Source of the DNA: a virus
Taxonomy: Duplodnaviria; Heunggongvirae; Uroviricota; Caudoviricetes
IMG/VR virus record: IMGVR_UViG_3300001336_000001
Location: 170,836 to 234,835 of that record
Direction: 5' to 3' (one strand)
Length of the DNA stretch: 64,000 nt
Part shown: piece by piece, positions 1-49,251 of the stretch
Layout: every line of letters begins with the position of its first letter
Numbering within the stretch: the first letter of the stretch is position 1
The notes under the pieces: model-generated
What the model was told of the DNA's origin: nothing
Databases searched by the model: none
Seen by the model: the letters and a program-made list of their open reading frames with translations, nothing else
Translations under genes and position numbers: made by a program

Positions 1-11
1 TATTTCTCATA

Positions 12-191
12 TTAAAAAAGTAATTGTCTACCGTCTTCAGTTATTATTTTCTTGTTAATTCTTTCCACTAAACTTTTATCTGTTTTAATGATACAGCCTT
101 CATCGTTACAATCTTGCTCTTCGATATTTTTTTTATCTAAAAAATCATCAAGATTAGCTTCAAGGGTTTTTTTGTTTTTGTTGTCATTCAT
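12..191 (-). CDS. hypothetical protein, 59 aa (MNDNKNKKTLEANLDDFLDKKNIEEQDCNDEGCIIKTDKSLVERINKKIITEDGRQLLF)
   Basis: Manually translated ATG(191)..TAA(12); TATTTAT motif 33 nt upstream; another ATG follows at 10. Confidence 0.7.
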   Translation of the reverse strand: MNDNKNKKTLEANLDDFLDKKNIEEQDCNDEGCIIKTDKSLVERINKKIITEDGRQLLF

Positions 192-241
192 AATACTTAA
201 GTTTTTAATACTTGTTATTTATTAATAAATATCTGTAAATC

Positions 242-640
242 TTAAAAAATCTTTTTTATATCTGACATTACTAACTTACCACTTTTCATAAGTATTAACT
301 TGTTTTGATACATTGACCAATCTATTTTTATTGATTTATAATTAATATTACCAAGGTCAATATCATGACTATTTTCTATTAGTTTATTCAACCCGTTAAT
401 ACTATATATAGCTGATTTTTTCTTATGTACGATTGTTGCATTAGGGAACTCTTTTTTAAAATCAATACGTCTATCTTCTGATAATAATAATTTAAATGTT
501 ACCAAATATTTGTATTCGTCATCAGTTTCAAATATCTGTATTTGATTTTCCCTAACATCAAAATTTTCGGTTAATATAGTCTTAAACCAATCAACCCTAT
601 CTTTAAATATGAATGATGCTATTAATATGTTTCTCCCCAT
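242..640 (-). CDS. hypothetical protein, 132 aa
   Basis: ORF track; overlaps the end of the upstream gene on the same strand. Confidence 0.7.
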   Translation of the reverse strand: MGRNILIASFIFKDRVDWFKTILTENFDVRENQIQIFETDDEYKYLVTFKLLLSEDRRIDFKKEFPNATIVHKKKSAIYSINGLNKLIENSHDIDLGNINYKSIKIDWSMYQNKLILMKSGKLVMSDIKKIF

Positions 641-1226
641 TACTTAATGAATATAAAAAAGGTATATACTTAACTTGTTCACCCAACATCTCAGTTATAT
701 CCTTATATTCTATAAGTATTTCCTCATTTGTTAAAAAATCTACACAAATTGATTTTATTTTATTTATTTTTTCAATTTTATCATAACCAAGATATTCCAC
801 CAAAGTTAAGTCTAATCCATATATTTTTTTTTCGGAATAAACATAAACCATATCCCTATATTTAAAACCTATCGATTTATTATTCTTTATTGTTTTAAAT
901 ATATTTTTAATCTCTAAATCAGTTAATTGTATTAGGTCTATAAAAACATATTCAATATCTTTAATTAATAATTTTGAACAATATTCAGTAAAATCATATA
1001 AATCATTATTAAATAAATCTCTTTTTTCGGTCTTTTTAAAAGTCCAAAAAATATTGTCTGATAATTTTCTATCAATAAAGTCAGAGTTTGGATTAATAGT
1101 TTTAACAATATCCCAACCAACTATTAATGTTGGTAATTCGGGGATTACATCATCAATGTTACCTACAATATTAAAAAACTTGTCGTAGGTATTTGAATTA
1201 TTCGATACTATGTTTCCAATATACAT
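603..1226 (-). CDS. hypothetical protein, 207 aa
   Basis: ORF track; TATATTTG element 4 nt before the ATG. Confidence 0.75.
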   Translation of the reverse strand: MYIGNIVSNNSNTYDKFFNIVGNIDDVIPELPTLIVGWDIVKTINPNSDFIDRKLSDNIFWTFKKTEKRDLFNNDLYDFTEYCSKLLIKDIEYVFIDLIQLTDLEIKNIFKTIKNNKSIGFKYRDMVYVYSEKKIYGLDLTLVEYLGYDKIEKINKIKSICVDFLTNEEILIEYKDITEMLGEQVKYIPFLYSLSNGEKHINSIIHI

Positions 1227-1230
1227 AGTG

Positions 1231-1238
1231 CAAATATA
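1231..1238 (-). promoter_or_regulatory. Bacteroidota-type -7 element TATATTTG, probably giving a leaderless mRNA
   Basis: Sense strand TATATTTG-CACT-ATG; no TTG at the 20-nt spacing. Confidence 0.5.
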
Positions 1239-1253
1239 CTATTTTTTTTTTAA

Positions 1254-4200
1254 TTATTTGTATGTTGTTAAAGTATTAACCTTCGCTAGTGATGTATTGT
1301 AAAGTTTTTCTTCTTTACTAATTATATCACAATCAGTAAAATCAGGGTTCGTAGTATAATTATCTTTAGTTCTGGCACCATAACCATTCCAATCCCTAAA
1401 CCATCTCCAAGCCCATTCGTTAGCACCCCCTCCAGTGTCAAACATGTTTCTCGCCATTATTGTTGAAATCAGTGGAACTAATCCCGCACTTAAATCAGAA
1501 AAACTATAATATTTTTTAATTTTACTAGTACCACCTTCTGGTATGATAACGTAACCGTTTACATCGTTTTTATTAAACACTTTAAAACCATCTGACTCAA
1601 CACCACTTATATTGTTATTAAACCCTCTAAACCCATCTCCTTTACCTTGTTCTGTTCTACTGATGGTAAATGCTGATACTAATATTAACTTCTTTTGTTC
1701 TGTTGTTGCATTTGGTGCTAATTTATTTATAACTTTTTCGGCAGCGGAAATATATTCTTGAGGTGTGACTAATGTTTCTACTTTGTCAACCTTTGGGTAA
1801 TCTGATTTTTTAACTGATACTGTTGGTTCATTAGTTTGTTTGACAATTACTTGAGCTGGCCCGTTTTTCCATTTAACACTTCTTGGATAAACAGTGTCTA
1901 CATCATTAGGGCTGGCTTTGCCACATTTAACATTTGGTGCCTTAACCCCTGCTTCAAAATAATCACCAGTTCCAATTATTTTCTTACCATCATAATACTT
2001 ATTATCTGTTTTTTTAACATACAATCTATAACTACCCACATCACTCTCGTCAATAAAAAACCCACCTGATAAATTAATTTCACTTGTTTTTACTGTGTCA
2101 CCCAAATTACCACCAACTATTAATGCTTTATTATTTTCGACTTTATATATAACATCGCAGTGTGATGCAGTGTAACCTCCAGTTCTGCTTTGACATAACA
2201 AATCACCTATTTCGGCTTTAATTTTAAGGCCTGATTTAAGTGGAAATAATTCATAACCTTTATTACCATTTATTGCTGCTGTAACATAAGTATAATGCGC
2301 TGTTGATTTTGGAAATTGAGAATCACCACCTATCATAATATATGATATAAATACAGCACTCCAGGGTTGTTCGTTTCTAGAATATTGTGATGCGCTAGGT
2401 CCTGGTGTTGTTGTTGCATATACACTCAATAAATCAACAGCATCTTTTTCATCTAACTGACCATTATTCCATTTACTTATTTCTTCTTCTGCTCGTTTTG
2501 TTATTTCATTTTTGTTAGGCATTGTGCTACCACTAATTATTATATTTTCTGGTATATTTGCTATTAAATCCGAAAAATATTTGTTGACATACGATGATTT
2601 GTTTGAGCGTTTACTTGATACCCTTGAACCACCAGTCGTCCCAATTAAATTCATATATACTGTGGCTTTATCTAAAAGAGGGGTTTTAGGTTTTTTAACC
2701 CTATTACCTTTAAATCTGGTTATCATCGAGTGTGGTTTAATACTATGTGTTACTTTAAATATTAAATACGCACCCCTAAACATTGGTACGTTGTTTAATT
2801 GGAAATACATCATGGGTTGTATCATAGCTGAACCCATCATTTCAACTTCTGCTGAATACGACCTTGTTTTATAAACATTAAATAGGTTATTACCAGCGTA
2901 ACTAGATTTACTTTTATCACCACCTAAACTTATTTGTTCTATTACTTGTAATGATTCCATAGTCTCAGCAAATTCTCTTTGGTCTAATTTTAAAGATTTA
3001 AAATAATTTTGATTTTGTTGACCGTAATTTACTGCAATAACTGGTACATTACTCTCACCAGGTTTGTTTTCACCAACAAAATCTTCAGCACCTTCTGGTA
3101 TTATAGGTGAGCCTGTTTCACTGTCAATATTAAACGATAACCCATCATCTGGGTATACTGAATCAACACCTAAATCTAAATTTTTTGATGTTTGTCCAAC
3201 ATATACACAAACAAATGATGGACCACCGTTTCCATCTATATTAGCAATATCAACGTAAGAGTAAGGTGTAAATGCGGTTTTTAAATCATTAATATTGTTA
3301 AAATTAAAAAACGTAGGTAATGCTATAAAGTTGAAATTATTGTCACTTAAGATTTCATTAACAATATCGAAAAAAGATTTGTTGTAATTACCAGTTATTA
3401 TTTTAGAAATGTAACCTAAATTTAAATAAAATTTATCTCCAATATCCCTAAATGCTCTATCAACAAACCTAAACGTATCTATTATGGATAAACATCCATC
3501 ACTAGATTTGTATTCATTAGATAACTCAACATCAGACTTATTTGTGTTACCACAAAGTGTCATTGGACAACCAGTTGGGTTTCCGTTTATCCACTTATCG
3601 TTTATTGAGGATAATGTTCTGTATATTTGTAATTTAATAGCATCATCATCTGTTGTACCAAAAATACGTTGCTTTTCTTCCGCATTTTCTACTGGTTTTT
3701 CTATTTGAAAATCTTTGTTTACTTCATCGAAGTAATTTTTAAATTCAGTTATAAAGTCCTCGTATTGTTTTTGTTGTACTAATATTTTAGCCCCAGACAA
3801 AATCTGGTTACGGACACTGGTTGTATTGTACCCTTGAGCTCTAAAAGCCATGAACCTATTGGTATCAGAAAACCCTAATTGGCTTTGTTTTGATGAAGCA
3901 TAGTTCCAAGTCTTTGGGTTTACATTTTTTAATATTACTGGTTCTTTAAATAAATTAACTAAAATTGTTTGTACTTCAGTATTTGGTTTTAATATTAAAT
4001 TAACTTGACCTATTTCACCCTTATTTTTACCAATATTTTCAATACTAACAGACAAAAAGTCATAATTTTTAGAAACATTTTCATCTATAAGACCTGAAGA
4101 AAAAGTGTCAAATTCACTAACATTAATAAAACCATCACCCGATGCTTGTTTTACAAAAAAACCCTTTACTTTATCCTCATATTTTTTAGCGTGAGTAGTG

Positions 4201-8457: not shown

Positions 8458-8467
8458 AATATAATTT

Positions 8468-13424: not shown

Positions 13425-13492
13425 ATATTATTATAGTTATATATTATATTATTATAGTTATATATTATATTATATTATTATAGTTATATATT
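13425..13492. repeat. three copies of 21-bp ATATTATTATAGTTATATATT in an intergenic AT-rich tract
   Basis: Copies at 13425-13445, 13446-13466 and 13472-13492. Confidence 0.85.
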
Positions 13493-13577
13493 ATATATAA
13501 AATCAACTATTTTGGTTAAACCGTCAAGTAAAATCTTTAATTTAACAAAAATTTAACATATTATTTATCATTTATTA

Positions 13578-21522: not shown

Positions 21523-22011
21523 CTAGAATAGTAATATTGCTCTATCAAACCTTAAATCTGCTGTTATGTCTGCAATTCCATCATCATCCATAGATAAATC
21601 ACCAAAGTTAACATTGGTTAACATTGTACCTTGTAATTGCCACTTCTCTATAACTACACCAGTAGGGTCAAGCATCTCTAACTCAATATCTTTTTTATAA
21701 CCAGCAGCATAACCTTGTCTACCTGTTATTGATTCAGATTGTAAACGAACCCATTCCATAATAGCCTGAGCAGCTGATGGTCCAATTGGGTCTCTAAAAG
21801 TAACACTTATAGATTCCCAAGTAAATCTACCGATAACCCAAGTTGATGTATTTAGGAAAGGTATTTCAACCTCATTTTGTGTTATAGAAGGTCTAGCTGC
21901 CGATGCCAACCACCATTCTTGAATACCCAAATCAGCTGGAAATCTTAATAGCCACCTATTTTTCTTTTTGGGTTCATAGGGTTGGGGCATTTTCATTAGT
22001 AAGTCTGCCAT
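21523..22011 (-). CDS. tail tube protein (T4 gp19-like)
   Basis: EPKKKNRW..GRFTWESISVTFRDPI..MEW..YKKDIELEMLDPTG.VIEKWQLQG; directly after the sheath gene. Confidence 0.88.
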   Translation of the reverse strand: MADLLMKMPQPYEPKKKNRWLLRFPADLGIQEWWLASAARPSITQNEVEIPFLNTSTWVIGRFTWESISVTFRDPIGPSAAQAIMEWVRLQSESITGRQGYAAGYKKDIELEMLDPTGVVIEKWQLQGTMLTNVNFGDLSMDDDGIADITADLRFDRAILLF

Positions 22012-25225: not shown

Positions 25226-25256
25226 TTGAAAATCTAAAAATTATATCATATATTTG
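25226..25256 (+). promoter_or_regulatory. Bacteroidota-type promoter TTG-N20-TATATTTG for the glycosyltransferase pair
   Basis: Ends 5 nt before ATG 25262. Confidence 0.65.
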
Positions 25257-25261
25257 TGTAT

Positions 25262-27376
25262 ATGGAAAAATTGTTAATAATAACACCACACCTATCTACA
25301 GGTGGTCAACCCCAATATGTTCTTAAAAAAATAGAGTTACTTAAATATAAGTATGATATATATTGTGTTGAATACAATTATTTATCACCACATTACGTAG
25401 TCCAAAGAAACTTAATTAAAAAAATAATAGGTGATAAATTTTTTTCAATAGGTGAGAATAATTTAGATTTATGTAATACTATAATTAACATAATTCCTGA
25501 TATAATATGGGTTGAGGAAATTGCTGAAACTTTTATTAAAAAGGAAGAGTGTGAGTTTATATATAATAAAGATAGAATTTGGAAAATTTTAGAAACAACA
25601 CATACATCAGAAGATTTAAGTAATAAAAAAAGTTTTTTACCTGATAAATTTATATTTGTATCTAATTGGTCGGAAAAACAATATAAAAAATTTAATGTAG
25701 AAATATCTATATTACAATATCCAGTTGATACGAAAGTAAAAAGAACAGCTTTTTTTAAAGATTTATTAAGTTTTGATAAAAAATATAAACATGTTTTATG
25801 TGTGGGTCTTTTCACTTCAGGTAAAAATCAGTTATACGCTATTGAGTTAGCTAAAAAATTAAAAGATGAAAAAATTATTTTTCATTTTGTTGGTAATACA
25901 GCACCTAATTTTTCAGATTATTGGCAACCATTACTAGATAATCTACCTGATAATTGTGTATTACATGGAGAAAAAGAAAATGTTGACGAATACATACAAG
26001 CTTGTGATTTATTTTTATTCCCATCTAAATTTGAATTAAATCCTTTGGTAGTTAAAGAAGCTTTATGTTACGAGGAATTACCTATACTAATGTCTAATTT
26101 AGATACTTATTGTGGTCAATATGATAATGTTACTAACATCAGATTTTTAACAAACAAAGTTAATGAAGATGTTTTTATAATTAAAAATATTTTTTTAAAT
26201 AAAGAAAAAACATATAAAGATATTGAAGGTTGGTTTTCTTATGAATGGTTATATGATAAATTTGGTAAATTATCTAAGAATGGTGACACCATCGTTGAAA
26301 TAGGTAGTTGGTTTGGTAAATCAACAAAATATCTTTCTGATAAACTAAATGAACATAATAAAAAAGTTGATTTAATTGTTATTGATACTTTTAAAGGAAC
26401 ACAAAATGAAGAACTACATAAAGAAATAGTAGGTGACGAAAGTATTTATCAAGACTTTTATTACAACGTAAATAACCCCAACATAACTATAATTAAAGAA
26501 AGTTCACACGAGGCCTCTAAGTTATTTACTAATGGTTCTATAGATTATTTAATGATTGATGGTGACCATAGCTATGAAGGTACTAAACAAGACATTCAAG
26601 ATTACTTCTATAAAGTAAAACCTGGTGGGATTATATCAGGTGATGATTATAAAGCGTTTCAAGGTGTTAGAATGGCGGTTGATGAGTTTTTTGTTGGGGC
26701 AGACATGAAAACCTCTGACAATTTACATTGGTATTACAAAATTCCTAAAATACAGATTATTCACATGTCAACACTACCCAAACAGAAAAGAGCTCAAGTT
26801 TCTATTGCAAACATTAAAGAACTATCTAGATATAATATAGATATTACATATATCGAAAATGAATTATATGATGGTGAATTAAATTTAGATAACTACAGAA
26901 ATCTAAGTAATACAAATGTAAATAAAGGACATTACGGTTGTTATTTAGCACATAAACAAGCAATATATAGTATGTCTGAAAAATATGATTATACAATTAT
27001 ATTAGAAGAAGATGCTTATATTTTCGAAGATTTAAAAACATTTGTTGATGTGGTTCATAAAGCAATATTTGAGTGTATTAAAAATGATGTTTATTTTGTG
27101 TCATTTGGTTCGTTCCCATTACAATCTGAACTTAAACCTTATAATGATTTGTTTGACGAATGTTGGCACCAATCATTAGCACATTGTTACATGATACCAA
27201 ACAAATACAAAAATTGGTATGTTGATAAATTTGAAAATAACCCGTGGGATTCCGCTGACATATGGTTTAATCATATTTTTTGTCATGATAGAAAAACTAG
27301 ATTGATGACAAAAAAAATGTATAGCAAACAATTAGATGGTTATTCACTAATAGATAAAATAGAAAAAAAATATTAA
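25262..27376 (+). CDS. multidomain GT4 glycosyltransferase / class I SAM methyltransferase / GT25-like glycosyltransferase
   Basis: HLSTGG..VGLFTSGKNQ..FPSKFELNPLVVKEA; VEIGSWFGKS..IDGDHSYE..KPGGIISGDDY; GCYLAH..ILEEDA. Start moved from GTG 25256 to ATG 25262. Confidence 0.8.
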   Translation: MEKLLIITPHLSTGGQPQYVLKKIELLKYKYDIYCVEYNYLSPHYVVQRNLIKKIIGDKFFSIGENNLDLCNTIINIIPDIIWVEEIAETFIKKEECEFIYNKDRIWKILETTHTSEDLSNKKSFLPDKFIFVSNWSEKQYKKFNVEISILQYPVDTKVKRTAFFKDLLSFDKKYKHVLCVGLFTSGKNQLYAIELAKKLKDEKIIFHFVGNTAPNFSDYWQPLLDNLPDNCVLHGEKENVDEYIQACDLFLFPSKFELNPLVVKEALCYEELPILMSNLDTYCGQYDNVTNIRFLTNKVNEDVFIIKNIFLNKEKTYKDIEGWFSYEWLYDKFGKLSKNGDTIVEIGSWFGKSTKYLSDKLNEHNKKVDLIVIDTFKGTQNEELHKEIVGDESIYQDFYYNVNNPNITIIKESSHEASKLFTNGSIDYLMIDGDHSYEGTKQDIQDYFYKVKPGGIISGDDYKAFQGVRMAVDEFFVGADMKTSDNLHWYYKIPKIQIIHMSTLPKQKRAQVSIANIKELSRYNIDITYIENELYDGELNLDNYRNLSNTNVNKGHYGCYLAHKQAIYSMSEKYDYTIILEEDAYIFEDLKTFVDVVHKAIFECIKNDVYFVSFGSFPLQSELKPYNDLFDECWHQSLAHCYMIPNKYKNWYVDKFENNPWDSADIWFNHIFCHDRKTRLMTKKMYSKQLDGYSLIDKIEKKY

Positions 27377-27379: not shown

Positions 27380-28558
27380 ATGAACTCACAAGAATTTAAG
27401 GATACGATTATTTCAGAAATAGAAAAAACTAAAATATCACATAAAGAAGTCACCAAACAAATTAATATTAACCTACATTTTGTTGGTAATCCGTTTTTGG
27501 AGATAACAGGTGATGTTGATGATAATTATGATGTTATATTTTATGATGGTGAAGAAATAATACACCAAACAACTTTAAAAAATAATATGTGGACCAAGGT
27601 TAATAGAAAATACTATACCGATTGGAGAGTTGTTGTTTTTAATAGTGATGGGTTAAAAATTTTTGAAAAGGAACTTAATTTACACAATAAAAGGGTTTAT
27701 ATCAGTTTTGGCTCGAAATCTTTAGGTGATACATTAGCTTGGGTTCCTTATCTTGAGGAATTTAGAAAAAAACACAATTGTGAATTAATTGTTTCGACTT
27801 TCTTAAATGAGTTATTTTCTGAACAATACCCAAACATAGAGTTTGTAAAACCTGGTGAGGTTGTTGATAATTTATATGCTATGTATGAATTAGGGTGGTT
27901 TTATAATGATGATGGTGATATTGATTATTTTAGAACACCGAACAATTTTAGAACACAACCCCTACAAAAAACAGCTACCGATATATTAGGTTTAGATTAT
28001 ATTGAAATTAGACCTAAACTAAAATTAACTGAAGTCGTGGTTAGTCTTAAAAAAGTGGGTATCGCTATTCATGGTACTGCTCAGTCAAAATACTGGAATA
28101 ATGAAAAAGGATGGCAAGAAGTTGTTGATTACCTAAAAAGTCTTGATTATGAGATAATGTTATATTCTGTTGAGGGTGATGGATATATGAGTAATACTCA
28201 CCCGAAAGGTATTCAACAATTCCCGAAAAGTTCACTACAAGATGTTATTTATGATATGCAAACTTGTGAGTTTTTTATTGGTATAGGTTCTGGTTTGTCT
28301 TGGTTGGCATGGTCTGTTGGTCTACCTATTGTTTTAATATCTGGTTTTAGTGAGGAATACACCGAAACTCAAAAAAATACATATAGAGTTATTAACAAAA
28401 ATGTTTGTACTGGTTGTTTTAATTCACATAGATTAGATGCTGGAGACTGGAATTGGTGTCCATTTAATAAAGGGACTGAAAGACAATTTGAATGTACAAA
28501 ATCTATAACATCAAATATGGTTATATCATCTATAAGTAAATTATTAACTAAAAATTAA
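27380..28558 (+). CDS. Aah/TibC-family protein O-heptosyltransferase-like (GT-B)
   Basis: SKSLGDTLAW.PY; KYWNN..GWQEVVDYL; FFIGIGSGLSWLAW..VLISGFS; Cys cluster CTGCFN..WNWCP..FECTKSIT. Confidence 0.78.
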   Translation: MNSQEFKDTIISEIEKTKISHKEVTKQININLHFVGNPFLEITGDVDDNYDVIFYDGEEIIHQTTLKNNMWTKVNRKYYTDWRVVVFNSDGLKIFEKELNLHNKRVYISFGSKSLGDTLAWVPYLEEFRKKHNCELIVSTFLNELFSEQYPNIEFVKPGEVVDNLYAMYELGWFYNDDGDIDYFRTPNNFRTQPLQKTATDILGLDYIEIRPKLKLTEVVVSLKKVGIAIHGTAQSKYWNNEKGWQEVVDYLKSLDYEIMLYSVEGDGYMSNTHPKGIQQFPKSSLQDVIYDMQTCEFFIGIGSGLSWLAWSVGLPIVLISGFSEEYTETQKNTYRVINKNVCTGCFNSHRLDAGDWNWCPFNKGTERQFECTKSITSNMVISSISKLLTKN

Positions 28559-29105
28559 TCACATAAGGACAAAAACAATGTTGGTCATTATGATATTGGT
28601 TTTTCGGTATTTCAGTTGTTATTTTTACTGAATCTAAAATTAATGAATCACCATAACCATATCTATCACCTCCTTTTGGGTCAAAATACGTGAAGACACC
28701 ACTTTCTCTTAAATATCTATCAACTATTAATGTTCTAAATAACATCATATTATAACAATCAGCATCATAAAAAATACCATCAAATGTTTTGTTTAGTTTA
28801 GGTAAAGTTTCAATCCAATCACCTTCTACTATAATAACATTAGGTTTATCTTTAGCCCATTCTTTAGCAATTTCGAGTATCTGAGGGTTAACCTCACAAA
28901 TAGTATGACTTTTAACACCCTTTTCTTGAATATAGTTAGTAGATATACCCATACCAAAACCAATTTCTAATATATCACCATTTGGTAGTAAATCAACGTG
29001 AGCCTTCATTAACTCACGTTCCCAATCCATCATAACAAAAATATTAGGATTATCTTTTACAACAATCCTATCTTCTTGAAAAATTAACTCTTTATCTTTT
29101 GTCAT
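28548..29105 (-). CDS. SAM-dependent methyltransferase, Rmt2/guanidinoacetate methyltransferase-like
   Basis: MMDWERELMKAH..ILEIGFGMGIS..HTICEVNPQI..GDW..FDGIFYD. Confidence 0.75.
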   Translation of the reverse strand: MTKDKELIFQEDRIVVKDNPNIFVMMDWERELMKAHVDLLPNGDILEIGFGMGISTNYIQEKGVKSHTICEVNPQILEIAKEWAKDKPNVIIVEGDWIETLPKLNKTFDGIFYDADCYNMMLFRTLIVDRYLRESGVFTYFDPKGGDRYGYGDSLILDSVKITTEIPKNQYHNDQHCFCPYVINF

Positions 29106-30990: not shown

Positions 30991-31704
30991 TTATAATCCG
31001 AAACGAGATTTTGTTGCGTTATAATTTTGTAGAACTTCTGCTGAGGAAATGGCTCGGTTATATATTTTAATTATGGCAATGTTTCCATCAAAATAATAAC
31101 TATTAGGATATGTTCTTCCAATTTGAAAAAAACAAGAAGAAATCGTGTCACTTGGTTGGTAAATACCTGTTGTTTTTTCTTCAGATAACTCACCATTTAA
31201 GTAAATTCTATTAAAATCCGTTCCTTGCCAATTAGCGACTATATGGTACCATGTATTAATAGATAAATTTGAAGTTTTTACTCCATCATTTTGTGTGGCA
31301 TTTGTTCCATTTGATGTAGATAACATAATTGAATCAGAGCCACTTAATTCAAATAACACATAATGTAAATTATTCCATGATGCCCCATCACCTTTCATTA
31401 CAATAGTATTATCATATGAACCACCTAAACTATCTAATTTAACCCAAGCTTCAATTGTTCCACCTAAGTTTAATATTAAATCATTACTAATAGGTACACT
31501 TATATGGTCATCTACATTATCAAATGTAATACTACCATAATTACCATTATCAAATGCTGGGCCATTAGTTAATGTGCCACTATTTCCATTTTTACTTAAA
31601 TCTTTCCAACTTGTGCCACTGCCTGGGTAGGATTTTGGATTTGCTGCGTCTAAATGCAACACTAAATCATTAGTCAATGCTATTGGTCCTCCGTAGCTTC
31701 CCAT
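30991..31704 (-). CDS. LamG/concanavalin A-like lectin-domain virion protein
   Basis: LHLDAAN..TIEAWVK..WYHIVA..IYLNG..FDGNIAIIKIYNRAIS..EVLQNYNA. Confidence 0.8.
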   Translation of the reverse strand: MGSYGGPIALTNDLVLHLDAANPKSYPGSGTSWKDLSKNGNSGTLTNGPAFDNGNYGSITFDNVDDHISVPISNDLILNLGGTIEAWVKLDSLGGSYDNTIVMKGDGASWNNLHYVLFELSGSDSIMLSTSNGTNATQNDGVKTSNLSINTWYHIVANWQGTDFNRIYLNGELSEEKTTGIYQPSDTISSCFFQIGRTYPNSYYFDGNIAIIKIYNRAISSAEVLQNYNATKSRFGL

Positions 31705-31705
31705 A

Positions 31706-31960
31706 TTAAATATTGTTTAAATCCTGCTCAGACCACTCACTTGTTTCGAGTATAGTTAATATTTCTTCTGAAGTATATGGGCCTTCTTTTGTTATTAAGC
31801 TATTTATTGAAGTAGGTATTGTGCTTCCAATCCACTTAACTATCGTTTTAGTGTTATCTAAAGATTTTCTTAAAGTTTCTTCTGAATATTCCATTACTTG
31901 TGAAAAATCTATATTGTCAACCTCTGACATATTAAAAATCATATATTTTCTATTATTCAT
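31706..31960 (-). CDS. small hypothetical protein in the lectin cluster, 84 aa
   Basis: ORF track; tight packing with neighbours. Confidence 0.7.
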   Translation of the reverse strand: MNNRKYMIFNMSEVDNIDFSQVMEYSEETLRKSLDNTKTIVKWIGSTIPTSINSLITKEGPYTSEEILTILETSEWSEQDLNNI

Positions 31961-31981
31961 TTTTTATATTTTTATATAAAT

Positions 31982-33349
31982 TTATAAACCAAATCTTGAT
32001 TTTGTTGCGTTATAGTTTTTAAGTATTTCTTCATCAGTCAACGCTGTGTTATAAACTTGGCAGGAAAAAATATCTCCTATAAAAGGATTAGTATATCCGT
32101 CTCCTATTATAATATCTGAAGAGCCATTTGCTGTAGAAACATACCCTCCAGCATTTTGAGTGCTAATTAGCTGTCCATTTTTATACCATTTACATGCATT
32201 TGTAGACTGGTCTCTTGTCACTGATATAAACGCCAACTCATCTATGCCAACTGTAAATGTAGAACCTCTACCCACATATGGTGTACTATTACCTCCATTT
32301 GTCCCAAAATAATAATTTATAGTTCCATTAGTTTCGTGTGTTAAAGTACCACTTCCTCCATAGGCTTGATTATAAGGGTTTCTTCTCAAACTATTTGCTC
32401 CAGTTCCTGGTTTTAACCACATACAGATTGTCTGAGCGCTAGAAAAGTCCATGGAACTTGCATCAAATGGTATTCGAATAGAATCATTTGCACCATCAAA
32501 TTTTAAACTACCTTTATTTTCTAATTCAAAAGTGGGGCCATTTATAAAATTTCCGTTATTTCCATTATTAGACAAATCGAAGGAAATGTCAGTTCTATTA
32601 TTTAATAAATCATCAAGACTAGGTTCACTACCATCTACTATATCTAATCTGGGATATACAGAATGATGTATTACCATATCTGTCACAGTAGCATTAGGTT
32701 GGTAAACAGCTAGAGTTCTACTTCTAGCTGTAGTTGTTTCAGCTCTCCATACATAATCAGCCCTTGAAATATTTGATATTTTACCGCTGTTTATCGTATA
32801 TAATCCACTATCAACATGATTACTTCCAGTGCCACTACCTTCTGGCCATACATGACCTACTACTAAAACCCACTCATTAAGCGGTAGCTGTGAACTAGTT
32901 GGTACAGCACTAGAAAACGTAAAATATGGATTTGTTTCATTATTTCCAGTATCTCTGTTCAAAACTCCATTAGTAGAACCATATCCATTTAACCCAGCAT
33001 AATATCTAGCAAAAGTTGCATCACCATTACTTACTCTACGTTCCCACCAGCTCATTCTGTACATTTTTGTATTATCAATAGATATTGGTGTCATATATAT
33101 ACCTCCACCTTTCGTAGAGCCTGCCACATTATAAGACTCCCATACAACGACCTGATTACCCCAAGGGTCATCTGAAATTAAACGCCTATTTCGGGTGCTA
33201 AAAGCCCCAAATGAGCCTATACCACCAGTTTGACCATTCTCCCATATAGTATAATTATATATTCGGTCTCTAAATTTAATAGATTTTGTATTAGCGGCAT
33301 CAAAATAAAATACTAGCCCATTTTTTATGTTATCTGGTCCTGTTATCAT
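31982..33349 (-). CDS. LamG/concanavalin A-like protein with an extra inserted beta-rich domain
   Basis: FDAAN N-terminus and YNTALTDEEILKNYNATKSRFGL C-terminus; ~230-aa insert. Confidence 0.78.
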   Translation of the reverse strand: MITGPDNIKNGLVFYFDAANTKSIKFRDRIYNYTIWENGQTGGIGSFGAFSTRNRRLISDDPWGNQVVVWESYNVAGSTKGGGIYMTPISIDNTKMYRMSWWERRVSNGDATFARYYAGLNGYGSTNGVLNRDTGNNETNPYFTFSSAVPTSSQLPLNEWVLVVGHVWPEGSGTGSNHVDSGLYTINSGKISNISRADYVWRAETTTARSRTLAVYQPNATVTDMVIHHSVYPRLDIVDGSEPSLDDLLNNRTDISFDLSNNGNNGNFINGPTFELENKGSLKFDGANDSIRIPFDASSMDFSSAQTICMWLKPGTGANSLRRNPYNQAYGGSGTLTHETNGTINYYFGTNGGNSTPYVGRGSTFTVGIDELAFISVTRDQSTNACKWYKNGQLISTQNAGGYVSTANGSSDIIIGDGYTNPFIGDIFSCQVYNTALTDEEILKNYNATKSRFGL

Positions 33350-34041
33350 AATCCAAATCTTGATTTTGTTGTGTTATAATTTTGTAGAACTTCTTCAGCA
33401 GTCAATGCTCTTTCATATATCATTGCATTAGACACTTTGCCATCTAAATACCTAGTACCACCTATTGTAACATTCCCTGTTCTAACACGTATTGGAGATG
33501 AAGCAAAAAGAGTTGTGCTAAATAATACACCATTAATATATAGTGTTAACCTACCACCATCGTATGTTCCTGTAAAATTTGTCCATAAACCATCATATGT
33601 AGCAGCAACAGCAGCGGACACTACTATTTGTCGTCTAACATTAGAATCATTTACGATTTCCAAAAAAATTCTACCTTCATATGTTATACTAATAAAATAA
33701 GAAGCATTTGACCCACCAAAACTAACACCCTTTGTTATTATATCTGAAAATACACCACGATTATAAAGTGGAATATTTACCCATGTCGATAATGTAATAC
33801 CAGCTGTTATATTTAAAGAGTCTGGATTTCCTAAAGTAACATAGTCATCTACACCATCAAACGAAATAACACCTTTTGATTCCGAATCTAAAGTAGGTCC
33901 ATTTGTAAGAACTCCATTATTATTATAGTCTGTTAAATCGAACCACACAGTTCCACTTCCTGGGTAGGATTTTGGATTTGCTGCATCTAAATATAGTGCT
34001 AAATCATCTGTAATTATTTTTGGCCCTCTATAAAATCCCAT
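33346..34041 (-). CDS. LamG/concanavalin A-like lectin-domain virion protein
   Basis: LYLDAANPKSYPGSG..GTYDG..LYINGV..IYERALTAEEVLQNYN. Confidence 0.8.
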   Translation of the reverse strand: MGFYRGPKIITDDLALYLDAANPKSYPGSGTVWFDLTDYNNNGVLTNGPTLDSESKGVISFDGVDDYVTLGNPDSLNITAGITLSTWVNIPLYNRGVFSDIITKGVSFGGSNASYFISITYEGRIFLEIVNDSNVRRQIVVSAAVAATYDGLWTNFTGTYDGGRLTLYINGVLFSTTLFASSPIRVRTGNVTIGGTRYLDGKVSNAMIYERALTAEEVLQNYNTTKSRFGL

Positions 34042-34043: not shown

Positions 34044-37000
34044 TTAAATAATTCTAACGCCTGTTTTAATTGTCCAAGTACCTCCACCTGCGACAATATC
34101 TCCTAGTAACCTAACATCACCTGAAGAAATATCAACACTAAATGAAACATTAGATGTAGAACTGCCTAAATCCGCAGTAGAAGTATCTGTGAACTCAACA
34201 TTTGTACCATCCCAAACAGCTATAACAGTACCTGCTCGAAGTGTAGTTCCGCTCATTACATAATAATCAAAATAAGCAGCTTGACCTAACGTAGAATCAA
34301 AAGTGGTACACACATTTGTTCCAGCCACTAACCCAATATTAATTGACGTATTCATCAATAGTGAACCATCAATTTGAACTCTATCATCAGAATTAACTGT
34401 TAAAATAGGGATACCAGATATGTCATTAACTGAGAATATATCTCCTATTAAATTGTCATCAACTGAGAATAATTGACCTGATGAACCAACAACATTAAAC
34501 AAAGTAGCCCCTGATGTTGTACCACTAATTTCTACATCTCCGTGAACATCTAGCTTTGCATCTGGACTTGTTGTCCCAATACCAACATTAGTACCGTTAT
34601 TAAATATATTTGATGAGTTCAAGACCCAAGAAGAACCATTCCAAAATGGTGTATTACCTGCTACTAAACCTGGTGATAAAAAGCCTGAAGTTCCCGATGA
34701 ACCGCTCGTCCCATCAACACCCGATGTTCCAGAAGAACCGCTTGCTCCTGAAGAGCCAGAGGTTCCATCAACACCACTCGTTCCTGAAGAGCCACTTGTT
34801 CCTGAAGAGCCACTTGTTCCATCAACACCCGATGTTCCAGAAGAACCGCTTGCTCCTGAAGAGCCAGAGGTCCCAGAAGAACCACTCGTTCCAGACGTAC
34901 CATTAACACCAGATGTTCCACCTGAACCACCTGTTCCATTTGTACCATCAATACCTGAAGTGCCACCTGTTCCATTTGTACCATTTATACCCGAAGTTCC
35001 ATCAACTCCTGAAGTTCCACCACTACCTGATGTTCCTGATGTTCCACCACTACCAGAAGTTCCTGAAGAGCCTGATGTACCATTAATTCCCGATATTCCT
35101 GATGTACCATTAACACCTGAAGTTCCGTTTATACCACTCGTACCATTAACACCAGAGGTACCACCACTACCAGAAGTACCCGATGTACCATTTATGCCTG
35201 ATGTACCTGAAGTTCCGTTTATACCACTAGTTCCAGAACTACCACTAGTCCCAGAACTACCTGAGGTACCACCACTTCCTGATGTTCCACTAGTTCCACT
35301 TGTACCTCCACTTCCCGAAGTCCCTGAAGAACCTGAAGAGCCTCCTGAACCACTTGTACCTGATGTACCACCACTACCTGATGTACCTGAAGTTCCATTT
35401 ACGCCAGATGTACCTCCACTACCAGATGTACCCCCGCTTCCTGATGAACCACTAGTCCCACTTATACCATCAATACCTGATGTACCTGAAGAACCACCAC
35501 TACCCGAAGAACCTGAAGTTCCCGAAGTACCACCAATTCCATTTGTGCCATCTATTCCTGATGTCCCACCACTACCTGAAGTTCCTGAAGTACCTCCTGA
35601 ACCACTTGTTCCAGATGTTCCACCTGAACCACTAGTACCTGATGTACCAGATGTACCATCTATTCCAGACGTACCTCCGCTACCTGATGTGCCTGAAGTA
35701 CCATTTATACCTGATGTACCGCCAGAACCCCCTGTTCCAGAAGTTCCCCCACTTCCTGAAGTGCCTGATGTCCCATCTATACCTGAAGAACCACCACTGC
35801 CTGAAGTACCCGAAGTACCTGATGTACCACTACTACCCGAACTACCCCCTACACCACTAGTACCACCGCTACCTGAAGTCCCAGACGTACCACCTGTTCC
35901 GTTTGTTCCATCTATACCTGACGTACCACCGCTACCTGAAGTACCATTAACACCCGATGTCCCTCCACTACCTGAAGTACCACTATTTCCTGAAGTTCCT
36001 GAAGTACCGCCAGAACCAGAAGTTCCGTTAACACCAGATGTACCGTTGATTCCAGATGTTCCGCCAGAGCCGCTTGTTCCTCTAGTCCCAGAAGTACCAC
36101 CACTACCCGATGTTCCTGACGTACCATTAACACCAGATGTACCATTAACCCCCGAAGTACCATTAACTCCGCTTGTACCACCAGAGCCACTTGTTCCAGA
36201 TGTTCCAGAAGTTCCGTTAACTCCAGAAGTTCCATTTACACCACTACTACCAGATGTGCCTGATGTACCACCAGAGCCAGATGTTCCTGAAGTACCCCCA
36301 CTTCCTGACGTTCCATTAACACCAGATGTACCTCCAGAGCCAGAAGTACCTGAAGTCCCCCCACTTCCAGAAGTGCCTGATGTACCTCCTGAACCACTTG
36401 TTCCAGACGAACCTCCACTGCCAGAAGTCCCACTTGTACCATTTACCCCTGAAGTTCCACCACTTCCTGATGTACCACTTGAACCACTTGTTCCACTTGT
36501 ACCACCACTACCCGAAGTGCCAGATGAACCTGATGTTCCACTAGAACCTGATGTTCCACTAGAACCTGATGTTCCACCACTACCAGAAGTTCCATCTATT
36601 CCCGAAGTACCATCAACACCTGAAGTGCCCGAAGTTCCATTTACACCAGATGTGCCTCCACTTCCTGATGTTCCTGATGTACCATTAATTCCTGATGTAC
36701 CATTAATTCCTGATGTACCACCACTTCCCGAAGTTCCATCAATACCCGAAGTTCCACTAGTACCCCCGCTACCAGATGTTCCATTTATACCTGATGTACC
36801 ACCAGTTCCGTTTGCGCCATCTATTCCTGATGTACCTGAAGAACCACCACTACCCGAAGAACCTGATGTACCGCCTGTTCCGTTTGTTCCATCAACTCCA
36901 GAAGTTCCAGAAGAACCATCAACACCACTCGTTCCTGAAGAACCGCTTGTTCCTGAAGAACCAGAAGTTCCATCTATACCTGATGTTCCCGAAGAACCTG

Positions 37001-40000
37001 AAGAGCCGTCTGAACCACTTGTACCTGATGTACCACCAGTTCCATTTGTACCATCTATGCCTGATGTACCGCCTGTTCCGTTTGTTCCGTCAATACCTGA
37101 TGTACCGCCTGTTCCATTTGTTCCATCTATTCCTGAAGTACCATTTAACCCATTTGTTCCATCAATTCCTGAACTACCACTTGTACCTGAAGTTCCGTTA
37201 ACACCACTAGTCCCATCTATTCCTGATGTACCGCTACTTCCTGAAGTTCCATCAATACCCGAAGTCCCATCAATACCCGAAGAACCACTACTTCCTGATG
37301 TTCCTGATGTACCACTAGTTCCATTCGTACCGTCTATTGCTGATGTTCCTGATGTACCACTTGCACCACTACTACCAGACGAACCACCTGTTCCATTAGT
37401 TCCATTAACACCTGATGTACCACCACTTCCCGAAGTCCCCGATGTCCCATCAGTCCCGTTTGTTCCATCAATACCCGAACTACCACCAGTTCCGTTGGTA
37501 CCATCTATACCTGAAGTTCCTGAAGAACCCCCCGTTCCATTTGTTCCATCAATACCCGATGAACCACTAGTACCGTCTATACCACTTGTACCATCTATTC
37601 CTGAAGTTCCACTACTACCACCAGTACCATTTGTCCCATTAACACCTGATGTTCCTGAAGAACCACCCGTACCACTAGTTCCATTATTTCCTGAACTACC
37701 ACTTGTACCTGAAGTTCCTGATGTACCACTTGAACCACTTGTACCCGAAGTCCCGTTAACACCACTAGTTCCTGATGAACCTGATGTGCCACCAGTCCCG
37801 TTTGTCCCGTCTATTCCCGATGTACCTCCACTACCTGAAGTACCTGATGTTCCACCAGTACCACTTGTACCATCTATTCCTGATGTACCTGAAGAACCAC
37901 CACTACCCGAAGAACCTGATGTACCGCCTGTTCCGTTTGTTCCATTTATACCTGATGTTCCAGAAGTTCCTGAAGAACCATCAACTCCAGAAGTTCCTGA
38001 AGAACCATCTATACCTGATGTTCCCGAAGACCCACTTGTCCCCGAACTACCTGAAGTTCCATCAACACCACTCGTTCCTGAAGAGCCGCTTGTTCCAGAA
38101 GAACCGCTTGTTCCATCTATACCTGATGTTCCAGAAGAACCACTTGTGCCTGAAGTTCCTCCACTACCTGAAGTACCTGATGTCCCATCTATACCTGATG
38201 TACCACCACTGCCTGAAGTACCCGAACTACCCCCTAAACCACTAGTACCACCGCTACCTGAAGTCCCAGACGTACCACCTGTTCCGTTTGTTCCATTTAT
38301 ACCTGACGTACCACCGCTACCTGATGTGCCTGAAGTACCATTTATACCTGATGCACCATTTATACCTGAAGTACCACTTGTGCCTCCACTTCCAGATGTA
38401 CCATTAACTCCAGAGGTACCGCCTGAACCACTTGTACCTGAAGAACCACCACTACCTGAAGTTCCTGATGTACCATTAACACCACTTGTACCATTAACAC
38501 CACTTGTACCATTAACACCTGACGTACCTGAACTACCACCACTACCCGAAGTGCCAGATGAACCTGATGTTCCACTAGAACCTGAAGAGCCGCCTGAACC
38601 ACTTGTACCTGATGTTCCACCACTACCAGAAGTTCCATTTACACCTGATGTACCACCACTACCAGAAGTTCCATTTACACCTGATGTACCACCACTACCT
38701 GATGTTCCTGATGTACCACTACTACCTGATGTTCCCGAAGTTCCAGAAGAACCACTACTACCTCCAGTGCCACTTGTCCCATCTACACCACTAGTACCAC
38801 CGCTACCCGAAGTCCCAGAAGTCCCCCCAGAACCACTTGTTCCTCCACTACCTGATGTACCACTAGAACCTGAAGAACCTCCTGTACCACTTGTGCCATC
38901 AATACCTGATGTACCTGAAGAGCCAGAAGTTCCACCACTTCCAGATGTGCCAGAAGTACCACTACTACCACTTGTACCATTAACACCTGATGTTCCTGAA
39001 GAACCTCCAGTTCCATCTACACCTGATGTACCCCCTGAACCACTTGTTCCTGAAGTCCCTGAAGAACCACTTGTCCCTGATGAACCGCTAGAGCCAGATG
39101 TCCCACTAGAACCACCACTACCAGAAGCGCCTGATGTGCCTCCACTACCTGATGTACCACCTGAACCACTTGTACCTGATGAACCACTACTCCCTGAAGT
39201 TCCTGATGTACCACCACTACCCGAAGTTCCGCTAGTACCATTAACACCCGATGTACCACCCGAACCACTAGTCCCACTTGAGCCACCACTTCCTGAAGTC
39301 CCTCCAGAGCCAGATGTCCCACTAGAACCTCCTGAACCACTTGTGCCTGAAGTTCCTGATGAACCTGAAGAACCACCGCTACCTGAAGTACCATTAACAC
39401 CAGATGTTCCACCTGAACCGCTTGTTCCAGACGTACCATTAACACCAGATGTACCATTAATACCTGAAGTACCATTAACACCAGATGTTCCACCACTTCC
39501 TGATGTTCCATTAATTCCTGATGTACCACTTGTGCCTCCACTTCCAGATGTACCATTAACACCAGATGTACCATTAATACCTGAAGTACCATTAACACCA
39601 GATGTTCCTGATGTACCATTAACACCACTTGTACCATTAACACCTGACGTACCTGAACTACCACCACTACCCGAAGTGCCAGAAGAACCACTACTACCAC
39701 CAGTTCCATTTGTACCATCTATGCCTGATGTTCCACCACTACCACTTGTTCCATCAATACCAGATGTACCACCTGTTCCGTTTGTTCCTGAAGAACCCGA
39801 TGTTCCAGACGAACCAGATGTACCTCCTGTTCCGTTTGTTCCATCAACACCTGATGTACCTCCACTACCAGAAGTGCCTGATGAACCAGAAGAACCTGAT
39901 GTACCCGAAGTACCACCAGAGCCAGAAGTGCCTGATGTACCTCCACTTCCAGATGTACCTCCAGAACCACTTGTGCCTGAAGTTCCTCCACTACCTGAAG

Positions 40001-41156
40001 TACCACTAGAGCCACCGCTTCCTGAGGTGCCTGATGTTCCTGATGAACCTCCAGAACCAGATGTACCACTAGAACCTCCTGAACCAGAAGTTCCTGAAGT
40101 GCCAGCATCAGTTCTACTCTCAACTTGACCCGTAGTAGTGTTTACAACTAAAACTTGGTTAGATGTACTACCACTCGGTACATCCAATATATGTATAGTA
40201 TTTGTATTAGTATCACCAGTAACAATTAAGTCACCACTTACTGTATAATCACCATTTAAAATCTTTGTGTATTCCCATACACTATTAGTTGAATTAAATG
40301 ATATTAAGTCGCCATTTGTTTCGCCACTGGTTTGTAAATTATGTAAATCATTTAATTTTTTACCTAAATCAGGTCTTACGAATATTGAACCGTTAGCATC
40401 AGCTTTAATAACTAAAGCCATCTCTATTTTAAGATTTGGTTCGATAGGTTCAAATTTAGTTAAACCACCTGCTATTGTTGGTGAAACATATAAAATATCA
40501 CCATCAACCCAAGTTTCACCATATAATGAACCAGTAGTATCTATATTTCTAACTAAACCAAAATTAGTAACATAACCATCATCACCATTATCAATATCTT
40601 GTGTCACAATACCCATTGTAAAATAATAAGGTATTGTATCGTCAGCAATCATGTAGTCAGCTAATATCCTACCAGAATTACCCAAAGTACCAGCCGCTCT
40701 TATTACTTTACCGTTATCTAATTGAGAACCAGTTTGGTTTTTAACTAAAAAATATTGTTCTAATCCTATTTGTTGGGTAACTTCACCATTGTTACCCATA
40801 CCTATTTCTAAAGTACCATCATCAACAGACCAATTAAGTCTACCAATTACATGTTGTGAGTTACCAGAATAATTTGTGTTAAAATCTATATAATCAACAT
40901 CAGAAATTGTATTAACAGTCAACCCACTATTAATAGTCACAGCCCCGTCAACAGTACCACCAGATATTATAGATAATCTATCCCAACCTATTTGTCTAAC
41001 TTCTTGAGGAGCTGTATCACCCGATGTGTATATAGTGTACATCTTAGCGTCAGCTGTATTTAACGCAACCTCGCCTGTTGTTAACCCACTTAATGGTGGT
41101 ATTTTATTAGGTACATTCGACCTCTTTAAAAGGAACGTATTCTTTCTATTTGCCAT
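34044..41156 (-). CDS. giant fibre protein with an ~1807-residue proline-free Gly-X-Y (GTS/GSG) repeat
   Basis: N-terminal fibre-anchor-like motif (LKRS..P..L..GEVALNTAD); repeat core; NVGIGTTSP and beta-rich C-terminus. Confidence 0.85.
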   Translation of the reverse strand: MANRKNTFLLKRSNVPNKIPPLSGLTTGEVALNTADAKMYTIYTSGDTAPQEVRQIGWDRLSIISGGTVDGAVTINSGLTVNTISDVDYIDFNTNYSGNSQHVIGRLNWSVDDGTLEIGMGNNGEVTQQIGLEQYFLVKNQTGSQLDNGKVIRAAGTLGNSGRILADYMIADDTIPYYFTMGIVTQDIDNGDDGYVTNFGLVRNIDTTGSLYGETWVDGDILYVSPTIAGGLTKFEPIEPNLKIEMALVIKADANGSIFVRPDLGKKLNDLHNLQTSGETNGDLISFNSTNSVWEYTKILNGDYTVSGDLIVTGDTNTNTIHILDVPSGSTSNQVLVVNTTTGQVESRTDAGTSGTSGSGGSSGTSGSGGSSGTSGTSGSGGSSGTSGSGGTSGTSGSGGTSGSGGTSGTSGSGGTSGTSGSSGSSGTSGSGGTSGVDGTNGTGGTSGSSGTSGSSGTNGTGGTSGIDGTSGSGGTSGIDGTNGTGGSSGSSGTSGSGGSSGTSGVNGTSGVNGTSGTSGVNGTSGINGTSGVNGTSGSGGTSGTSGINGTSGSGGTSGVNGTSGINGTSGVNGTSGTSGSGGTSGVNGTSGSGGSSGSSGTSGTSGSGGSSGTSGSGGTSGSGGSSGTSGSGGTSGVNGTSGTSGSGGTSGTSGSSGSSGTSGSGGTSGSGGTSGASGSGGSSGTSGSSGSSGTSGSSGTSGTSGSGGTSGVDGTGGSSGTSGVNGTSGSSGTSGTSGSGGTSGSSGTSGIDGTSGTGGSSGSSGTSGSGGTSGSGGTSGTSGSGGTSGVDGTSGTGGSSGSSGTSGTSGSSGTSGTSGSGGTSGVNGTSGSGGTSGVNGTSGSGGTSGTSGSGGSSGSSGTSGSSGTSGSGGSSGTSGVNGTSGVNGTSGVNGTSGTSGSGGSSGTSGSGGTSGVNGTSGSGGTSGTSGINGASGINGTSGTSGSGGTSGINGTNGTGGTSGTSGSGGTSGLGGSSGTSGSGGTSGIDGTSGTSGSGGTSGTSGSSGTSGIDGTSGSSGTSGSSGTSGVDGTSGSSGTSGSSGTSGIDGSSGTSGVDGSSGTSGTSGINGTNGTGGTSGSSGSGGSSGTSGIDGTSGTGGTSGTSGSGGTSGIDGTNGTGGTSGSSGTSGVNGTSGTSGSSGTSGTSGTSGSSGNNGTSGTGGSSGTSGVNGTNGTGGSSGTSGIDGTSGIDGTSGSSGIDGTNGTGGSSGTSGIDGTNGTGGSSGIDGTNGTDGTSGTSGSGGTSGVNGTNGTGGSSGSSGASGTSGTSAIDGTNGTSGTSGTSGSSGSSGIDGTSGIDGTSGSSGTSGIDGTSGVNGTSGTSGSSGIDGTNGLNGTSGIDGTNGTGGTSGIDGTNGTGGTSGIDGTNGTGGTSGTSGSDGSSGSSGTSGIDGTSGSSGTSGSSGTSGVDGSSGTSGVDGTNGTGGTSGSSGSGGSSGTSGIDGANGTGGTSGINGTSGSGGTSGTSGIDGTSGSGGTSGINGTSGINGTSGTSGSGGTSGVNGTSGTSGVDGTSGIDGTSGSGGTSGSSGTSGSSGTSGSSGTSGSGGTSGTSGSSGTSGSGGTSGVNGTSGTSGSGGSSGTSGSGGTSGTSGSGGTSGTSGSGGTSGVNGTSGSGGTSGTSGSGGTSGTSGSSGVNGTSGVNGTSGTSGTSGSGGTSGVNGTSGVNGTSGVNGTSGTSGSGGTSGTRGTSGSGGTSGINGTSGVNGTSGSGGTSGTSGNSGTSGSGGTSGVNGTSGSGGTSGIDGTNGTGGTSGTSGSGGTSGVGGSSGSSGTSGTSGTSGSGGSSGIDGTSGTSGSGGTSGTGGSGGTSGINGTSGTSGSGGTSGIDGTSGTSGTSGSGGTSGTSGSGGTSGTSGSGGTSGIDGTNGIGGTSGTSGSSGSGGSSGTSGIDGISGTSGSSGSGGTSGSGGTSGVNGTSGTSGSGGTSGTSGSGGSSGSSGTSGSGGTSGTSGTSGSGGTSGSSGTSGSSGTSGINGTSGTSGINGTSGTSGSGGTSGVNGTSGINGTSGVNGTSGISGINGTSGSSGTSGSGGTSGTSGSGGTSGVDGTSGINGTNGTGGTSGIDGTNGTGGSGGTSGVNGTSGTSGSSGTSGSSGASGSSGTSGVDGTSGSSGTSGSSGTSGVDGTSGSSGASGSSGTSGVDGTSGSSGTSGFLSPGLVAGNTPFWNGSSWVLNSSNIFNNGTNVGIGTTSPDAKLDVHGDVEISGTTSGATLFNVVGSSGQLFSVDDNLIGDIFSVNDISGIPILTVNSDDRVQIDGSLLMNTSINIGLVAGTNVCTTFDSTLGQAAYFDYYVMSGTTLRAGTVIAVWDGTNVEFTDTSTADLGSSTSNVSFSVDISSGDVRLLGDIVAGGGTWTIKTGVRII
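34683..40103 (-). repeat. Gly-X-Y triplet repeat, ~602 triplets with degenerate codons
   Basis: 5421 nt = 1807 codons from first to last Gly; only one Gly-position substitution (AID) seen. Confidence 0.92.
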
Positions 41157-49112: not shown

Positions 49113-49251
49113 TTTTAATATATTCTTCAATAAACCTCCTTATCAATTTAGATGGTGTCACACAACTAATATCACATTTATCTAAAAATTTAGTTTTAAT
49201 CTCCTCATCAACCCTAATGTGTAAATATTTATCTTTTTTTTGTGTTCTCAT
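49096..49251 (-). CDS. ribbon-helix-helix (CopG-like) protein, 51 aa
   Basis: Manual translation MRTQKKDKYLHIRVDEEIKTKFLDKCDISCVTPSKLIRRFIEEYIKNEEKN; overlaps the endonuclease start. Confidence 0.7.
   Translation of the reverse strand: MRTQKKDKYLHIRVDEEIKTKFLDKCDISCVTPSKLIRRFIEEYIKNEEKN

Follow-up and report, generated by a model that had tools for sequence, protein, structure and literature searches.

In a 64,000-nucleotide stretch of a tailed-phage genome (Caudoviricetes; IMG/VR record IMGVR_UViG_3300001336_000001, positions 170,836 to 234,835; hereafter the window), taken from a virus record that is complete (287,855 bp) and has terminal repeats, we found a giant fibre gene, P0001, whose product carries 603 consecutive in-register Gly-X-Y triplets without a single proline, and, about 6 kb from it, a gene for a protein O-glycosyltransferase of the TibC/Aah family. 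TibC-like genes and Ser/Thr-rich triplet repeats are paired across phages. We consider it rather probable that P0001 is a trimeric tail fibre with a continuous collagen-type triple-helix shaft, the serines of which are O-glycosylated by the adjacent TibC-family transferase.

The proline-free repeat of P0001 and its relatives

The gene and its repeat occupy the following positions of the window.
34044..41156, minus strand: giant fibre gene P0001, 2370 amino acids (aa) (open reading frame (ORF) and translation; match to Pfam Collagen, PF01391)
34677..40103, minus strand: Gly-X-Y repeat, 603 in-register triplets, Pro-free, 48% Ser+Thr
37332..37340, minus strand: Gly-to-Ala interruption (AID, codon GCA), triplet 308 of 603
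34960..40128, plus strand: antisense open frame, 1722 aa, entirely within the repeat on the opposite strand

The repeat spans residues 352-2160 of P0001, and 602 of its 603 triplets open with glycine, the sole exception being AID; chance comes nowhere near such a register. A preliminary description of the window, made from the letters alone, had reported an in-register, Pro-free Gly-X-Y repeat with one AID and few basic residues at 34683-40103; apart from the lower boundary, which we place at 34677, this account holds. It had also remarked that the repeat does without both usual stabilisers of collagen, and indeed neither the imino acids nor the X/Y charge pairs are there: the 1809 residues include 0 Pro, 0 Lys, 1 Arg and 45 Asp (2.5% charged), with 48% Ser+Thr and 39% Gly. 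Position X is held mainly by Thr (325), Ser (170), Ile (51) and Val (46), and position Y by Ser (375), Gly (107), Asn (74) and Asp (45), with no Thr at all; the most frequent triplets are GTS (278), GSS (89), GSG (80), GVN (33) and GID (30). The Pfam Collagen model nevertheless matches P0001 with 433.8 bits (cut-off 27.2; E 3.7e-133). The local G+C content of the repeat is 44-49%, against 30.5% for the genome, and the 1722-aa frame on the plus strand is a mirror artefact of the repeat, not a gene. The AID break lies nearly exactly mid-shaft; a hinge, a polymorphism and a base error are all conceivable.

At the DNA level the repeat is diverged. Its longest exact repeat is 76 nt, all 77-mers are unique, Tandem Repeats Finder reports short arrays only (60-90% matches), and the glycine codons vary synonymously (GGT 332, GGA 177, GGC 55, GGG 38). 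We compared 198 best-matching pairs of 72-nt windows inside the repeat (mean identity 84%) and counted 2248 differences: none falls on positions 1-2 of a glycine codon and 511 fall on position 3 (∼250 per codon position are expected if differences are uniform). Glycine at every third residue is under strong purifying selection, and is therefore a strong structural requirement rather than the by-product of a recent 9-nt slippage. The special triplets (G-Ile/Val-Asn/Asp and G-x-Gly) are aperiodic (autocorrelation at most ∼0.1) and nearly always have GTS on both sides; the shaft is the same throughout its 603 triplets and shows no pattern of turns or domains.

The preliminary description had called this fibre unusual, but it is not singular: many phages carry fibres of the same kind. 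With part of the repeat as query we retrieved 118 clusters of proteins of 1300-4150 aa, each with at least 30 triplets, and Pro makes up less than 1% in 95 of them. For example, a 274-kb contig (L227) has a complete ORF of 3394 aa with 904 unbroken triplets, and another locus (L231; G111:C1:167500-185500, positions 1268-15583) has an ORF of 4772 aa with 1431 Pro-free triplets, mostly GSS/GTS, 1168 of them unbroken, in which the longest exact DNA repeat is 92 nt. The latter shaft is the longest among the fibres found and would reach ∼1 micrometre if triple-helical. Further complete ORFs have 566 triplets without interruption (L032) and 666 triplets overall (L062). Given the longer shafts of L227 and L231, P0001 is a large, not an extreme, member of the family. 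Among 80 viral loci chosen solely for having at least 20 triplets (the matches listed) and unselected for TibC, 52 are of the Pro type, 15 are Ser/Thr-rich and Pro-free and 13 are of other types.

Tail-fibre features of P0001

The domains flanking the repeat and the genes that place P0001 in a tail module are as follows.
40104..41156, minus strand: N-terminal domain, 351 aa, presumed attachment end
41037..41156, minus strand: first 40 residues, a motif in common with the upstream 657-aa protein (45% identity over 40 aa, E 2e-7)
34527..34682, minus strand: conserved post-repeat junction (FLSxGxxAGNTxxWNGSxWVLNSSNIFNNGxNVGxGTTSP...)
34047..34382, minus strand: C-terminal beta-sandwich knob, ∼112 aa
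41383..43356, minus strand: upstream 657-aa protein with the N-terminal motif of P0001
29454..30857, minus strand: short paralogue P0002, 467 aa, 17 triplets of the same kind, same junction
30991..34041, minus strand: three concanavalin-A (ConA)/LamG-like proteins (237, 455 and 231 aa) directly downstream of the fibre gene (PF13385, E 1e-14 to 1e-24)
21523-22011: tail tube gene
22082-24928: tail sheath gene
8140-8457: baseplate wedge gene

Judged by its sequence, P0001 is a phage fibre, which follows from the homology of its N-terminal domain to annotated tail fibres, the tailspike-like fold of its C-terminus and its location among sheath, tube, baseplate wedge and lysin-like genes. The N-terminal domain matches phrog_19966 (long tail fiber protein distal subunit; E 2.7e-6) as well as phrog_9942, and tblastn aligns it at 30-40% identity with annotated tail or tail-fibre proteins of Nitrincola phage 1M3-16, Pseudomonas phage Rollin and Roseobacter phage CRP-6. 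A megablast search with the flanks gave no match among GenBank phages. A profile search of the N-terminal domain against PDB sequences returned nothing (best E 0.93), and its AlphaFold2 (AF2) model is poor (predicted local distance difference test score, pLDDT, 36.5). The C-terminal beta-sandwich is modelled with pLDDT ∼80-90, and the best structural hits come from trimeric phage tailspikes and fibres, in each case from the C-terminal domain (6e1r, Z 10.5, rmsd 2.5 over 102 aa; 9f4a, Z 10.3; 7xy1, Z 8.9), a likeness that points to a common fold and is not proof of a common receptor-binding function.

The C-end of P0001 is 63% identical to that of a Gly-Ser/Thr fibre in another locus (L008), and its junction is 73% identical to that of P0002. 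The NVGIGTTxP module of the junction is frequent in large fibre proteins; used as a query, the C-terminal region retrieved mainly non-collagen fibre proteins with this module, and the repeat family could not be traced in this way. The upstream 657-aa protein is probably another fibre component, and the ConA/LamG-like proteins are possible tip adhesins.

A TibC-type cassette and its pairing with triplet repeats

Candidate modification genes are found at four places in the window.
27380..28558, plus strand: TibC/Aah-family protein O-glycosyltransferase, 392 aa, candidate fibre modifier
25256..27376, plus strand: GT1 glycosyltransferase fused to a TylF-like methyltransferase, 706 aa, directly upstream of the TibC-like gene (Pfam PF00534, PF13578, PF05711)
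28548..29105, minus strand: small S-adenosylmethionine (SAM) methyltransferase, 185 aa, link to the system uncertain (Pfam Methyltransf_25)
62100-62903: UDP-glucose/GDP-mannose dehydrogenase-family gene (Pfam PF00984, PF03721)

The 392-aa protein belongs to the bacterial autotransporter heptosyltransferase (BAHT) family of the TibC-TibA and Aah-AIDA-I systems (TIGR04414; PDB 4RAP/4RB4) by its hidden Markov model score, its catalytic Asp and its Cys4 iron finger: it matches TibC (PDB 4rap) with E 3.9e-61 and the NCBIfam equivalog TIGR04414 with 292.1 bits (cut-off 200), and its residues D117, C343, C346, C360 and C372, invariant across nine phage TibC homologues, align with the catalytic D110 and the iron-finger C339, C342, C358 and C370 of TibC. 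Working in the cytoplasm, BAHT enzymes hyper-glycosylate the serines of long repeats rich in Ser, Gly, Thr and Asn, and TibC itself modifies Ser, not Thr, in such repeats (PMC4358343).

A profile scan of viral sequences for TibC-like genes gave at least 562 loci, of which we analysed the best 80. The GT1-methyltransferase accompanies the TibC-like gene in 76 of these, ConA/LamG-like homologues are present in 19, and the small SAM methyltransferase is found in only two. 43 of the 80 loci have at least 10 triplets inside 10 kb, and 40 of these 43 repeats are Ser/Thr-rich with less than 3% Pro; the median distance from the TibC-like gene to the triplet fibre is 2.5 kb. Of the 37 other loci, eight carry repeats of this kind farther away in their records; the two records with a completeness of 90% or more are among these eight. 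Conversely, in the sample selected for triplets, TibC-like genes are present in three of 14 records of the Ser/Thr type and in none of 57 other records (Fisher p ∼0.006). The end domains of the fibres are not conserved across the 80 TibC loci (the N-terminal domain of P0001 recurs in one and its C-terminal domain in three), so the pairing follows the repeat itself and not one fibre lineage. The preliminary description had suggested that the shaft might need glycosylation; a TibC-family cassette 6 kb away that co-occurs with this type of repeat across phages lends the suggestion comparative support. A literature search found no paper that ties TibC-family enzymes to collagen-like fibres of phages.

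The pair is also found in a cultured phage. In Microcystis phage Mel-JY01 (PP395634.1, L229) a TibC-like domain lies within a 1226-aa protein, and a Ser/Thr-rich triplet repeat (mostly GTS/GSS, with a few Pro triplets at its start) lies ∼5 kb from it. The repeat lies in a plus-strand frame (2..3052) that is already open at the first base and continues past the start of the record; the repeat gene probably wraps the record ends. GenBank annotates two minus-strand 'hypothetical proteins' over the repeat (1-651 and 739-2298) and, on the plus strand, only the last 177 codons; judging from the frames, the minus-strand annotations look like antisense mis-calls.

Several further observations concern the cassette or its substrates. 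In four loci (L019, L020, G040 and G050) the TibC-like domain is part of frames of 719-794 aa; in these, as in the 1226-aa protein of Mel-JY01, it is joined to partner enzymes for which the window has genes of their own. A different triplet fibre (171 triplets such as GYT, GAT and GDT, with 42-45 Pro) was observed in L011-L013 (4652-6643), 5 kb from a TibC-like gene, and the pairing may thus extend to repeats with Thr in Y. The dehydrogenase-family gene could be a sugar supplier for fibre glycans. The 74 Asn residues in Y, where followed by Gly-Thr/Ser, create N-G-T/S sequons in P0001, as do 429 GTN triplets in L227 (9723-19907); cytoplasmic N-glycosylation at these motifs is conceivable.

Elsewhere in the window, the structural region is interrupted by two large genes that are HNH/homing-endonuclease-like (phrog_3339/559, with E values as low as 1e-138), at 19714-21402 and 47664-49130. 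Two giant ORFs adjoining the baseplate genes (1254-8147, 2297 aa; 8468-13348, 1626 aa) have no PHROG match and may encode VrlC-like structural proteins.

The structure of the shaft and its place among known fibres

In the reading we favour, P0001 would be a virion tail-fibre protein of a jumbo myophage, its three chains probably joining via their terminal domains and the 1809-residue Gly-X-Y stretch folding into a single continuous triple helix of ∼0.5 micrometre, with the lectin-like beta-sandwich knob, and possibly the ConA-like proteins too, at the far end for host capture. The TibC-family enzyme would glycosylate Ser in the cytoplasm, and its GT1-methyltransferase partner would extend and methylate the glycan; dense Ser O-glycosylation, mostly at position Y, would then probably stabilise and shield the shaft. 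From its composition the bare chain is expected to be a weak helix former; a shaft with no Pro and almost no charge pairs is therefore probably glycosylation-stabilised. If, and only if, the shaft is a triple helix, 0.286 nm per residue gives it a length of ∼517 nm, or ∼1.7 times collagen I (338 triplets), in agreement with the earlier estimate that it would be the longer of the two.

Several points weigh against this reading. We know of no structure or biochemistry for any Pro-free, charge-poor Gly-Ser/Thr-Ser helix, and host-guest peptide scales place Thr in X, and Ser, Asn, Gly and Asp in Y, among the residues least able to form a triple helix. The AF2 model, which is of a monomer, assigns the triplets pLDDT 30-45. 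The known acceptors of TibC are beta-helical autotransporters, not collagen. As to the donor sugar, which for BAHT enzymes is ADP-heptose, gmhA and a CTP_transf_like domain (as in HldE) were not found in the phage genome, and in view of these missing heptose-pathway genes we do not claim heptose as the sugar. Many of the 80 TibC loci are close copies of one another and most of the records are fragmentary. The control for shared ancestry is incomplete; the pairing could come in part from such ancestry or from common residence in the host-recognition gene cluster.

The main alternative, possible if unlikely, is that the repeat is a mucin-like tether keeping the C-terminal knob well away from the virion: an extended, heavily glycosylated chain, disordered or a single-chain polyproline-II (PPII) helix rather than a triple helix. 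The high Ser+Thr content (48%, with 39% Gly and neither Pro nor charge pairs), the protein O-glycosyltransferase cassette nearby and the low confidence of the triplets in the AF2 monomer model would all suit such a tether, but a disordered or bottle-brush linker would not need Gly at exactly each third residue, and both the absence of any change at Gly codon positions 1-2 among the 2248 differences and the relatives with 904 and 1168 triplets and zero breaks speak for a stricter requirement. We give very little credence to a bundle of polyglycine-II/PPII helices, as in snow-flea antifreeze protein, whose flat Thr/Ser faces would attach to ice or to surfaces, an idea put forward in the preliminary description. 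Polyglycine-II bundles do exist in phage adhesins and antifreeze proteins, and Gly-rich triplets with small hydroxyl residues would be in keeping with one. Such a bundle, however, needs short helices with regular turns, and no periodic break or turn interrupts the 603 triplets (autocorrelation at most ∼0.1); its inward positions need Gly beyond one residue in three, but only that one residue is constrained here, with Gly in Y in 107 of 603 triplets and X almost always a beta-branched or hydroxyl residue. Nor does the genomic context give any pointer to ice.

That the length of the repeat (for which the preliminary description named the risk of an assembly artefact), or the gene itself, is an artefact of assembly or annotation is hardly credible. 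Repeats can be mis-assembled, several related contigs stop within such repeats (L008 and G003), and the exact P0001 sequence was not found in a collection of 15 billion proteins. But the unique 77-mers, the limit of 76 nt on exact repeats and the diverged copies speak against an artefact, as do a frame that stays open across 7.1 kb in a genome of 30% GC and the many independent assemblies with complete ORFs of the same kind, of equal or greater length (566, 904 and 1168 uninterrupted triplets in L032, L227 and L231). Two further folds were considered and rejected: a left-handed beta-helix, the hexapeptide pattern of which fits GVNGTS runs, since most of the shaft has no aliphatic residue, and a silk-like beta-sheet, since the period is 3 and not 2.

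Collagen-like phage tail fibres are already known, and were reportedly the subject of 'Bacteriophage collagen' by Smith et al. in 1998. Like P0001, such fibres (PF01391; prophage side-tail fibres) have a Gly-X-Y shaft between the globular N- and C-terminal domains of a trimeric fibre. A trimer with a triple helix has been shown for EPclA of E. coli O157 (PMC3368898), and 49% of orf028 of cyanophage P-SSM2 consists of Gly-X-Y, in which X and Y are frequently Pro, Ser or Thr (PMC1079782). In a typical viral collagen domain, position X is ∼22% Pro and 35% Asp/Glu, and position Y is 38% Arg/Lys (PMC3368898, Table 4). P0001 differs from the characterised phage collagen fibres in its 0% Pro, its 2.5% charged residues, its 603 triplets (against tens to ∼100) and its link to TibC; a triple helix without imino acids and charge pairs, as proposed here, is not so far known. 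It also departs from the BAHT systems, in that the presumed acceptor is a viral Gly-X-Y fibre rather than a beta-helical autotransporter passenger and the enzyme is paired (in other phages, fused) with a GT1-methyltransferase.

Hydroxyl-rich collagen triplets are also found in BclA of Bacillus anthracis, which has GPT repeats with O-glycosylated Thr, and in the cuticle collagen of Riftia, with galactosylated Thr in Y; in both, O-glycans replace hydroxyproline as stabiliser or form an outer surface. The analogy to vent-worm cuticle collagen drawn in the preliminary description is apt in this respect but inexact, because those proteins have Thr in Y and Pro in X, whereas P0001 has Thr in X only (325 against 0 in Y), mostly Ser in Y (375) and no Pro.

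In the host-recognition cluster of pelagimyophages, genes for tail fibres that bear 'triple collagen repeats' and ConA domains are mixed with glycosyltransferase and sugar-nucleotide genes between the baseplate and neck genes, and the glycosyltransferases are assigned to modification of the host O-antigen (PMC7029224). Our pairing data, in contrast, point to the fibre itself as the acceptor. Glycosylation of virions is documented in mycobacteriophages, according to work cited in PMC12619734.

Pro-free Gly-Ser/Thr fibres recur in hundreds of phage contigs, and, to judge from how tightly they are linked genetically to a TibC-family enzyme, glycosylation of virion proteins seems to be common in large aquatic phages; the pairing offers a concrete acceptor for glycosyltransferases that were earlier ascribed to modification of the host surface. 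Tentatively, and with less confidence than for P0001 itself, we propose that phages have a second answer to the problem of collagen stability, namely a Pro-free, charge-free Gly-(Thr/Ser)-(Ser/Asn) triple helix that would be stable through dense O-glycosylation of Ser at position Y by a TibC-type enzyme, yielding 'glyco-collagen' fibres of 0.5-1 micrometre that would widen the capture radius of large aquatic phages. Mel-JY01, as a cultured carrier, makes the idea of a glycosylated fibre testable. If true, recombinant collagens could be designed by a new rule, and the capture of hosts at very long range would have a mechanism.

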